Shown here one piece after another: positions 30,405 through 63,086 of a DNA stretch of 64,000 nt. The first letter of the stretch is position 1. Each line of letters begins with the position of its first letter. The DNA is from Eledone cirrhosa (taxonomy: Eukaryota): positions 5,084,001 to 5,148,000 of the forward strand of contig OZ024753.1 of NCBI GenBank assembly GCA_964016885.1. The letters are read 5' to 3'. The notes below the pieces were generated by a model. That model made no database searches and had not been told where the DNA came from. It worked only from the letters and a program-made list of their open reading frames with translations. Position numbers and translations under genes: made by a program.

Positions 30405-30466
30405 TTTTATCTGATGAGGACGTACTGAGGAAACAGCACAGTACCTCTGAAATATATATAATAAAA
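30405..30466 (+). ncRNA. Minimal type I hammerhead ribozyme (family E) in the loop of a foldback
   Basis: TTTTAT-CTGATGA-..GTACTG..CAGTAC..-GAAA-TATATA-TA-ATAAAA. Inverted arms at 30362-30397 and 30478-30513. Related copy at 63327-63387. Confidence 0.7.
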
Positions 30467-33238: not shown

Positions 33239-33310
33239 GGGGATGTAGCTCAGTGGTAGAGCGTTCGCTTTGCATGCGAAAGGCCCCGGGATCGATCCCC
33301 GGCATCTCCA
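33239..33310 (+). tRNA. tRNA-Ala (anticodon TGC)
   Basis: 72-nt cloverleaf: acceptor GGGGATG/CATCTCC with the G3:U70 alanine identity pair, anticodon arm TTCGC-TTTGCAT-GCGAA, T-arm CCGGG/CCCGG, discriminator A, oligo-T terminator just downstream. Confidence 0.96.
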
Positions 33311-58049: not shown

Positions 58050-58470
58050 TCCACTACATATTTCTGACAACCAGTCTAACTGTGGCACATATTTCTGACA
58101 ACAGATGAACTGTGGTACATGTTTCTGACAACAGATAAATTGTAGTACATATTTCTGGCAACCAGATCAACTGTGGTACATATTTCTGACAATAGATAAA
58201 CTGTGGTACATATTTCTGACCATAGATAAACTATGGTACATATTTCTGACAACAGTTGAACTCTGACAACCAGATGTGCTACATATTTCTGTCAACCAGA
58301 TGTGGAGCATATTTCTGTCAACCAGATGTGGGACATATTTCTGACAACAGATGAACTGAGGTACATATTTCTGTCAACCAGATGTGGTGCATATTTCTGA
58401 CAACCAGATGTGGAACATATTTCTGGCACCCAGATGTGGTACATATTTCTAACAACAGATGAACTGTGGG
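58050..58470. repeat. Minisatellite (ACATATTTCTGACAACCAGATG)
   Basis: About 15 units of 26-31 nt. Confidence 0.85.
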
Positions 58471-58589
58471 GAAATGCTTAACTCAGAAACATAAAAGACT
58501 AGGGCTGATTTATCTTCACATTTTCCATTTATTTTGCTGATTGTGGCAAACCCTGCATTGACCAGTAGATGAAAAAAATTACCTGTCCT

Positions 58590-59496: not shown

Positions 59497-60739
59497 CAGT
59501 AGTAGTAGCAGTAGCAACAGCAACAACAACAGCAGTAACAGTAACAGCAATATATCAACAATTCCCATTTGGGAAAGCAAAGTATTTTGGTTTACTTCTA
59601 CATACACAAGTTGTCTTAGTTTTAGACCAATTGGCTCTGACAACATTTTGGTAATCAATCTAAACTCTTACTTCTTATATCTCTCTCTTTTCTCTCTCTT
59701 TTCTCTCTCTTTCCTCTTATTCCTCTCTCTTTCTTCTCATTCCTCGCTCTTTCCTCTCATTCCTCTCTTTTCAGCTCTCATTCCTTAGCTAATAAATCAA
59801 CAACTTTTGCTACATTTCACTCTCTTCGAATAGAAGTATTAATACTTCTCTCTAACACACTTGTATATATATATATATACATATTTTCATTTATGTATGT
59901 ATGCATATATATATAGAGAGAGAGACATACTTTTATTTATGTATGTATGCATATATATATATAGAGAGAGACATACTTTTATTTATGTATGTATGCATAT
60001 ATATATCTATAACGTATATATATATATTTGTGTGTGTGTGAGGTGTAAGTGCATATGTGTGCATAAATATACAAGGATAAACACAAACACACAGACATAC
60101 ATAGAAACACATACAAACTCACACACATGTTTTAAATGAAATTTAATTTTTAATTGAAAATAAAGAATTTGGTGAGATTTAGTGAAGTAATTAATTTTTC
60201 CGTTATTAAGCTGGAGTTTTAAACATAACTTAGAAGGTTATTATATAAAATTATGATGTAAGCTTTTATTTTCAAACTACCATAGTACCCATAAAAAATA
60301 ATGGGGTTTATTTCTGTCTCCTTTCAATAATTCTTAATGTATAGGCTTCAAACCTTATTTCATTTTCTTGTGTTTAATTTTGTCCTGCTTTAGTTATTTT
60401 CTTTGTTTTTACCCCAACTCATTATCTTTCATTATTCCCTCTGATAAAGGGCAGGGGAGCGACAGAGTCATTGAGGTGTTGGACAAATGATTAACAATAT
60501 TTGTCCTGGCTCTTTACATTCTCAGTTTAAATCCTGTCAAGGGCAACTTTGTCTTTTATTCATGAAAATGATGATGATGATCATCATCATTGTTGTCATT
60601 TTTATGTCGACTTTTCTATACTAGCATGGGTTGGACAGGACATTTTGAGACAGTGTTTTACAGTCACATGTTCTTCTGGACACCAATCCTTTTACTCAGT
60701 TCTTACAACATGCAATGGTATGGGAGATAAATGGTAAAC

Positions 60740-60997
60740 CATTGGTATGGTGGATGACCATTTAAAGCAATGGTTAGCCAGAGGTATGGTGGACAACCAT
60801 TTAAAACAATGGTGAGCTAGTAGTATGGTGGACAATCATTTAAACCAATGGTTAGCCAGAGTTATGGTGGACAACCATTTAAACCAATGGCTAGCCAGAG
60901 GTATGGTGGACAACCATTTAAACTAATGGTTAGCCAGAGTTATAGTGTACAACCATTTAAACCAATGGTGAGCTAGTGGTATGGTGGACAACCATTT
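60740..60997. repeat. 39-bp tandem repeat
   Basis: TATGGTGGACAACCATTTAAACCAATGG.. about 6.5 copies. Confidence 0.9.
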
Positions 60998-61827
60998 TCT
61001 ATGTGAACATCTATGATTAAACAGATGTATTATATTAAAGTTGTTAAAACTCTACACCATCAACCAATTCTAGCTGAGTTGAGATGATTTTGAAGACAGT
61101 TCATCGACATCTTGGGAAGTTGATGATGATAATGATGATGATGATGATGATGATTATGTTGATGATGATGTTGATGATTATCATGATCATGGTGTTGATG
61201 ATTATGGTGATGATCATCCTCATGATGATGATGATGATGATTGAAAATGAAGATGGATTTGATGATCATGGTGATGATAATGATGAAAGTGATAGAGATG
61301 ATTATTATGATTATTATGATGATGATGATGATGGAGATGATGTCGATGTTGGAGATGATGATGATGATGATGATAGTGGAGATGACGATGATGATCATAG
61401 TGATTATGATGAAAGTGTTAGAGATGATTATGATGATGATGGAGATGGTGATGATGATGATGATGATGAGGATGATGATGTTGGAGATGATAATGATCAT
61501 CATAATGATGATGATGATGATGAATTTGATGTTCTTTATAACTTCCTCTAATCCTCTAATATTTTCAGGTGTTTTTTCTAAATTTAAACTCCAAACAAGA
61601 AGATATATTTAGTAATAATGTTGATGTTATATATGTTTAACTTTTACAAGCTGTCTAAATGATGGAAGAGTTTATTTGAACTCACTTCACCTAGCTGTCA
61701 CACTATCATTGTATATTAGCTGATTGGTTTACTGAATGGTGTTTAGTTGAATCTACAAATTCAGCTTCTATGTCTAGAACTAATTATATGCATGCATATC
61801 ATATGCGAATGTGTGTGCATATGTACG

Positions 61828-62050: not shown

Positions 62051-62249
62051 TCATACATTATATATATATATATATATATAAACATATGTATGTATATATG
62101 TATATCTAAACATATATATATATACATACATTCAAAAGAAATCATCAGGGCTTTCCTGATGATGTCTTTCGAATGAAACAGTTCTCATCCTGTAGAAGCC
62201 GTCTCTGTCTCTCTCTATATATATTAGAATTGGTGCTCTGAAATAGCGA

Positions 62250-62562
62250 TATATATATGAATGTATATATAGTGTATTTTAGAATGCACTGTATGCTTAA
62301 TTAAAAGCATTTTGAAGACCTTACACTATTGTTTTAAAGTAGTGACTATGTCACTTACTTCTATTTTCAGCAAACAAGGGGAGATAAGCTGACAGAGCTC
62401 TGTTTCGTACTGTTGGTACTTATCAAAGCCTAGCACTTCCCTTGTTTGCTGAAAATAGAAGTAAGTGACATAGTCACTACTTTAAAACAATAGAGTAAGG
62501 TCTTCAAAATGCTTTTAATTAAGCATACAGTGTATTGCAAAATACACTATATATACATTCAT

Positions 62563-62568
<6 letters not shown>
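62250..62568. mobile_element. Foldback element with a single hammerhead in the loop (family I)
   Basis: About 130-bp inverted arms (62250-62382 / 62437-62568) with few mismatches; TA flanks. Confidence 0.7.
62385..62432 (-). ncRNA. Type I hammerhead ribozyme, U3-A8 core variant
   Basis: TAGGCT-TTGATAA-GTAC-CAACA-GTAC-GAAA-CAGAGCTCTG-TC-AGCTTA: 6-bp stem I, 4-bp stem II, palindromic stem III, GUC cleavage triplet. Confidence 0.8.
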
Positions 62569-62601
<33 letters not shown>

Positions 62602-62605
<4 letters not shown>

Positions 62606-63029
62606 AGGTGAGTTTTATTGTAGTACAATAAAGCAATGCAGATATCGGATAAGAAGCACTCTACAGTTTGTAGGACTGGAGTATACATAATATAAGATCA
62701 AAAGATGGTTAAAGGAGTTCCATGTATTTTATTATGCGCATTTCAAAAACAAACATCATCATGCAATAATATTTGTGTTTTCATCAGATAAAACAGGAGA
62801 ACATGATATGAAGGCTAAAAAACACTTGTGGATAGTGCAGTTTTAAATCAACATATCGTTGATTTAAAACTGTTGATTTAAAACTGCACTATCCACAAGT
62901 GTTTTTTAGCCTTCATATCATGTTCTCCTGTTTTATCTGATGAAAACACAAATATTATTGCATGATGATGTTTGTTTTTGAAATGCGCATAATAAAATAC
63001 ATGGAACTCCTTTAACCATCTTTTGATCT

Positions 63030-63037
<8 letters not shown>
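62602..63037. mobile_element. Penelope-like terminal-repeat foldback element (family A)
   Basis: About 166-bp inverted arms (62687-62852 / 62872-63037) plus an 85-bp unpaired tail, flanked by (TA)n. Homologues at 19316-19712, 29657-30056 and 40950-41079. Confidence 0.75.
62931..62997 (+). ncRNA. Minimal type I hammerhead ribozyme (family A); mirror copy at 62727-62793 on minus strand
   Basis: TTTTAT-CTGATGA-long stem II-GAAA-TGCGCA-TA-ATAAAA. Stem I TTTTAT/ATAAAA; palindromic stem III ATGCGCAT. Confidence 0.8.

Positions 63038-63086
<49 letters not shown>

Follow-up and report, generated by a model that had tools for sequence, protein, structure and literature searches.

Does a hammerhead ribozyme whose core carries a U3-A8 pair in place of C3-G8 reflect selection for activity or the decay of a mobile sequence, and how did it come to lie in the loop of a foldback? 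We asked this of one locus in the window, by which we mean the whole 64,000-nt stretch of Eledone cirrhosa DNA that was analysed. The results indicate that the pair was inherited from a subfamily of mobile repeats in which it is the rule, and that the foldback is the form in which this copy was inserted.

The hammerhead motif and the insertion that carries it

A sequence-only reading had described here a hammerhead with three paired stems, a GUC site and the core UUGAUAA. This description holds for the minus strand, a detail which that reading had not given: the reverse complement, 62432-62385, contains the quoted RNA. Stem I has six pairs, two of which are G-U, stem II has four, and helix III has four with a 4-nt loop. 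The three helices surround the core, the motif is closed at stem I and the cleavage site is of the NUH type, as in type I hammerheads. The conserved core positions 3-9 and 12-14 are present with a Watson-Crick 3-8 pair, which is U3-A8 replacing C3-G8 (numbering as given in PMC7151607). A chance motif was rejected, as a strict descriptor matched once in the window and in none of 100 shuffled windows. The search of the window copy against Rfam returned no hammerhead at the gathering score and none at E<=10 on 86 bases.

The motif had also been placed in the loop of a foldback of about 130 bp. This was borne out by arms of 135 nt (62249-62383 and 62436-62570) that are 96% complementary and enclose a loop of 52 nt. 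The insertion as a whole extends over 62223-62570 between TA runs. Its main arm is 234 nt long and lies on the minus strand; the inverted arm has 135 nt, the first 21 of which are also part of the main arm and represent one strand of the native hairpin. Insertions of the family show a partial tandem, an inverted arm, a one-sided tail and a TA target, and these are Penelope-type traits as described in PMC8557442. Judged by its sequence, the foldback arose by inverted insertion of the Penelope type, with the junction at the native hairpin.

Table 1 Features of the insertion and its hammerhead in window coordinates.
Feature	Coordinates	Strand	Remark
Short TA run abutting the long end	62215-62222
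Main arm, 234 nt of the 318-nt unit, to the long fixed end (unit position 228)	62223..62456	-
26-nt tail between the two fixed 3' ends, main arm only	62223..62248	-
Native hairpin of ~21 bp, closing the hammerhead in all subfamilies	62363..62456	-	7/13 tested pairs covary
Type I hammerhead motif	62385..62432	-	identical to the consensus of its own subfamily (A1)
Predicted cleavage site, 3' of C17 (62391; GUC)	62390..62391	-
Helix III, perfect 12-nt palindrome, predicted dimer interface	62392..62403	-	duplex -21.5, own hairpin -2.5 kcal/mol
Stem II (4 bp) and 5-nt loop 2	62407..62419	-	3/4 pairs covary across subfamilies
Core positions 3-9, including U3 (62426) and A8 (62421)	62420..62426	-
Inverted arm, unit positions 68-202, to the short fixed end, without ribozyme core	62436..62570	+
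(TA)n tract adjoining the short end	62571..62603	.	likely target site

The two ends of this insertion recur throughout the family. Among 237 segment ends, 61 3' ends fall at unit position 202 and 48 at 228, 26 nt apart. Two-armed junctions numbered 77, and 56 of them could be classified (21 unclassed): 50 combine a long with a short end, five are short with short and one is long with long. The long-short combination at 50/56 compares with an expectation of 50% (p 4e-10). As counted in these genomic copies, the near-strict pairing of two different fixed ends in two-armed insertions is new here. The junctions themselves are spread over the unit, and three of 79 join at the native hairpin through 20-21 nt of shared sequence (the window copy, L008 and L065/L067). 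It is the position at which the two arms met that left the ribozyme in the loop. Placement there by selection was rejected, since only these 3/79 junctions are of this kind and the arms themselves hold the motif in many copies.

Other repeats and features were seen in the window. A second repeat family contributes three two-armed insertions (62682-63042; 19415/19527; 29842/29956), which carry a C3-G8 type I hammerhead with a long stem II and a palindromic helix III in both arms; the plus-strand motif at 62930-62998 is one of them. Two more hammerhead-like cores, of other families, are found at 30411 and 31631 (+). There is a tRNA match of 70 bits at 33239-33310 (+), and minisatellites occupy 58055-58495 (periods of 26-31 nt) and 60691-61002 (period of 39 nt).

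The 318-nt repeat and the history of its core pair

The window motif belongs to a non-coding repeat whose 318-nt units each hold one type I hammerhead, and the frames listed from this unit include no long ORF. Tandem arrays of nine or more units are present at loci L114 and L120, and at the family level consecutive units with hammerheads are found at L020, L113/L114, L120 and L123. The head-to-tail period is 318-320 nt, with nothing coding between the abutting units. Many family copies are longer than one unit, and an uncut multimeric transcript accounts for them as well as a circle does. The 5' ends of copies show no pile-up at the cut site. Folded as a circle, the unit has a predicted energy of -78.6 kcal/mol, with a z of -6.4 relative to 60 shuffles. 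By its unit, its tandem arrays and its self-paired predicted fold, the repeat is of the animal non-LTR retrozyme kind. Over 208 nt the window copy shares 96.6% identity with the consensus of its subfamily. As it holds one ribozyme and less than one unit, no unit RNA can come from it, and it is probably inert. Two other repeats were encountered at the loci collected. One is a young 310-nt sister family (L164:9257-10000, L064 and L026; copies 97-100% identical), which has an end region in common with the 318-nt unit but a different C3-G8 hammerhead; the other is a tandem 469-nt repeat (L162:5684-7091), three units of which each contain a short C3-G8 hammerhead.

The UUGAUAA core had been taken as a compensated pair, to be checked against other genomic copies and abandoned if the family consensus were C3-G8 with two chance mutations in this copy. 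We searched 3.0 Gb of genome with an exact, wider pattern, which counts motifs instead of insertions and lets decayed copies escape, and obtained 2,011 motifs: 990 U3-A8, 919 C3-G8, 24 U3-G8 and, by subtraction, 78 other. Thus 1,909/2,011 motifs carry one of the two Watson-Crick pairs. When positions 3 and 8 were left open, all 32 exact matches to the subfamily of the window copy were U3-A8. U3-A8 is the consensus of the group of subfamilies to which this copy belongs, and sister subfamilies retain C3-G8 (the 919 motifs). By these counts the pair was fixed in a group of subfamilies, and two independent mutations in the window copy were rejected. The U3-G8 motifs are scattered over many subfamilies, 17 on C3-G8-type and seven on U3-A8-type backgrounds as read by eye; therefore no mismatched subfamily has spread, and these motifs look like decay after insertion.

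The relationships among subfamilies were examined with 190 motifs from 140 loci, of which 155 were aligned with native flanks; the loci were best or first matches, a non-random sample from which duplicates were imperfectly removed. The subfamilies form a ladder with a single switch between the core types, and the closest pair across it differs by 5.6%. Since both core types occur in subfamilies that are 94% identical, the switch can be placed on the tree. The swap maps to one branch, together with a change in helix III that it possibly offsets, and this is new here. With a 310-nt outgroup family that has C3-G8, the best root falls among the C3-G8 subfamilies, and roots on the U3-A8 side were not rejected by the AU test (p 0.08-0.12). 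A C3-G8 ancestor with U3-A8 as the derived state is favoured. The divergence ages of the subfamilies (mean 3-6% in groups of 8 or more) give no order among them.

Covariation was assessed in 14 hand-picked rows spanning the subfamilies. Pairing was found in 95% of 359 cells, compared with 33-45% in slid controls, and 16/28 pairs change on both sides, across stems I, II and III, the 3-8 pair and the native closing hairpin; as related rows share changes, these counts are not independent events. This pattern argues strongly that selection acted on the spreading RNA in favour of the hammerhead fold. The earlier suggestion of selection for activity instead of decay therefore survives in part: U3-A8 was kept by selection as a compensated pair. 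The window copy is an inheritor of that pair and a less-than-unit insertion, so the selection is placed on the spreading element and not on this copy.

Predicted folding of one and two motifs

It had been supposed that the motif, lying in an unpaired loop, is free to fold. Folding predictions did not agree. In the predicted misfold of the monomer, the 5' strand of stem I and the core pair with helix III, and the active form lies 4.5 kcal/mol above this structure with a probability of 0.0003, or 0.03%. Inside the native hairpin the active form stays unfavoured and the predicted pair probability of helix III is 0.00. For two copies of the window motif, the predicted minimum is a double hammerhead (-31.3 versus 2 x -11.9). 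The double hammerhead is the two-copy minimum for 3/9 subfamily consensuses and not for the other six; all of these folding energies leave out Mg2+, tertiary contacts and proteins. Helix III is self-complementary throughout the subfamilies and in the outgroup. These models predict that a single motif adopts an off state, with the 5' strand of the core on helix III, and that two motifs form a double hammerhead via the palindrome. The predicted double form agrees with the dimer model put forward for Penelope-associated hammerheads (PMC4209133; PMC6765202).

It is conceivable, if unlikely in our judgement, that the same family cuts well as a monomer, with loop 1-loop 2 contacts, Mg2+ or a protein overcoming the predicted misfold and the palindrome being secondary. 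Helix III is able to form four pairs, and coral and mussel retrozymes are reported to cut as monomers, as invertebrate retrozymes in PMC7229834 do. A C3-G8 sister aligns with the loop letters of Rfam HH9 with 23.5 bits and an E of 5.4e-4, which is below the gathering score of 52; in the window copy, loop 2 is 5 nt long and one letter of loop 1 is changed. Against monomer cutting stand the predicted energy gap of the active form, the absence of helix III pairs within the native hairpin in the same predictions, and the self-complementarity that helix III has kept in subfamilies and outgroup alike.

U3-A8 is linked to the perfect palindrome; the exceptions, all scattered, are three C3-G8 motifs with the palindrome and 21 U3-A8 motifs with the older loop. 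When C3-G8 was put on the window background, the misfold was predicted to be 2.7 kcal/mol stronger and the double hammerhead was no longer the minimum. The linkage and the folding of the swapped core, which concern one event, suggest a reason for the swap. Because of these two observations we tentatively put forward, as an idea that may well be wrong, that the helix III change made a dimer palindrome which also pairs with the 5' strand of the core, that C3U then weakened this off-state far enough to let the double hammerhead prevail and that G8A restored the catalytic pair, the outcome being a monomer-off, dimer-on switch. The event is a single one, and its branch carries roughly a dozen differences. 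If this is true, a monomer-off/dimer-on switch tuned via a catalytic base pair has been caught between subfamilies that are 94% identical, and the element with this switch also records two-strand priming from two fixed sites.

Proposed mobilisation and comparison with known systems

The same genome contains a 4.13-kb autonomous Penelope-like element (L161-L164). Its open frames exceed 1,000 codons, its copies occur in tandem as well as inverted, and about 300 nt past the stop codon lies a hammerhead-like core. Its two-armed copies have long and short ends in 2/2 cases (L163, L164). In a comparison that covered one RT family and four long loci, the 318-nt unit and this autonomous family had no shared sequence beyond TA repeats; for this reason the partner enzyme is a putative one. 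At a further locus (L141:631-2668, overlapping L095), an RT fragment of this Penelope-like element runs directly into the 318-nt unit, both in the same orientation; TA repeats flank the chimera on either side, and no other element sequence follows it. It may be a product of template switching that points to the partner enzyme. The direct junction at this one locus would also fit the reading that the unit is a pseudo-LTR of an autonomous Penelope-like element and the copies its 5'-truncated insertions, instead of a self-standing non-coding element. We regard that as improbable: the copies run head to tail with a period of 318-320 nt and no coding sequence between units, no ORF with reverse transcriptase and GIY-YIG endonuclease was found between pseudo-LTRs as the units abut directly, and the ends of the RT family seen at L095 are its own and unrelated to the unit, with local alignment scores no better than shuffles.

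We consider it likely that the window copy is a truncated two-armed copy of the 318-nt retrozyme-kind repeat, that its subfamily inherited a compensated U3-A8 core with predicted dimer-only cutting, and that a Penelope-like enzyme inserted it. The unit, its tandem and more-than-unit copies, the two fixed 3' ends at (TA)n, the inverted arms and the covariation of every stem and of the 3-8 pair are read from the genomic copies. We propose that tandem loci would be transcribed and that double hammerheads would cut out unit RNAs, which would circularise and, as monomers, remain uncut. A Penelope-like RT-endonuclease may then open a TA tract and copy the RNA from two start sites, one for each DNA strand. 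In the window case the two cDNAs would have been joined at the native hairpin, leaving the ribozyme in the loop. That the U3-A8 subfamilies instead carry a weakened or dead ribozyme with a relic pair, and spread since the partner enzyme needs no cutting, has precedents in minimal Penelope hammerheads that cut poorly in vitro (PMC4209133) and in an anole element for which ribozyme cutting was dispensable for insertion in vitro (PMC11167929), but it is very improbable, as stems I and II continued to acquire compensated changes among U3-A8 subfamilies after the swap and Perreault et al. 2011 (PMC3088659) report U3-A8 cores found in nature as active-type covariation.

The U3-A8 variant and the class of element are already known, so the window copy itself is ordinary. 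Our literature search returned no paper on the 318-nt family or on the end pairing, and the supplements of PMC4209133 and PMC7229834 may list similar mollusc motifs. The family is of wider use in that its close sister subfamilies hold about 900 motifs of either core type, a natural test set for C3-G8 versus U3-A8 ribozymes and for comparing monomer with dimer cutting. The fixed pairing of long and short ends yields a direct prediction for the priming of both DNA strands by Penelope-like enzymes and for their mobilisation of retrozymes, the latter being a proposal in the literature. Animal hammerheads are also undercounted by Rfam and core-word searches.

The insertions resemble those of Penelope-like elements in the accounts of Craig et al. 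2021 (PMC8557442) and Frangieh et al. 2024 (PMC11167929), which describe partial tandems, an inverted 5'-truncated arm, AT or (TA)n targets, a tail that is often one-ended, two internal starts of reverse transcription, and cutting and extension of both strands. The Eledone unit differs in having no ORF and a tail of 26 nt rather than 30-40. Two internal start sites with two-strand extension are reported for the anole element (PMC11167929); near-strict long/short pairing was counted in the Eledone family, whereas the in vitro anole study saw no start-site strand difference. U3-A8 hammerheads number about 1,300 in the Cercyon Penelope-like elements of Schistosoma mansoni (Cervera and de la Pena 2014, PMC4209133), which likewise have the U3-A8 covariation, close motifs on opposite strands and a proposed dimer-type action. 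As described there, the Cercyon motifs are minimal, with a long helix II and almost no helix III, and lie in coding elements, whereas the Eledone motif has canonical 6-bp and 4-bp stems. In unit structure the family resembles the animal non-LTR retrozymes (Cervera and de la Pena 2020, PMC7229834; Li et al. 2026, bioRxiv 10.64898/2026.07.22.740005), for which those reports give a single type I hammerhead in a non-coding unit of 150-450 nt, a low GC content, dispersed monomers and tandem arrays, a strongly self-paired circular fold and a proposed Penelope-like origin. Unlike the retrozymes so described, the Eledone family, known here from its DNA, is half U3-A8 and has a long palindrome in helix III, and most of its copies read are two-armed inverted insertions with two fixed ends.
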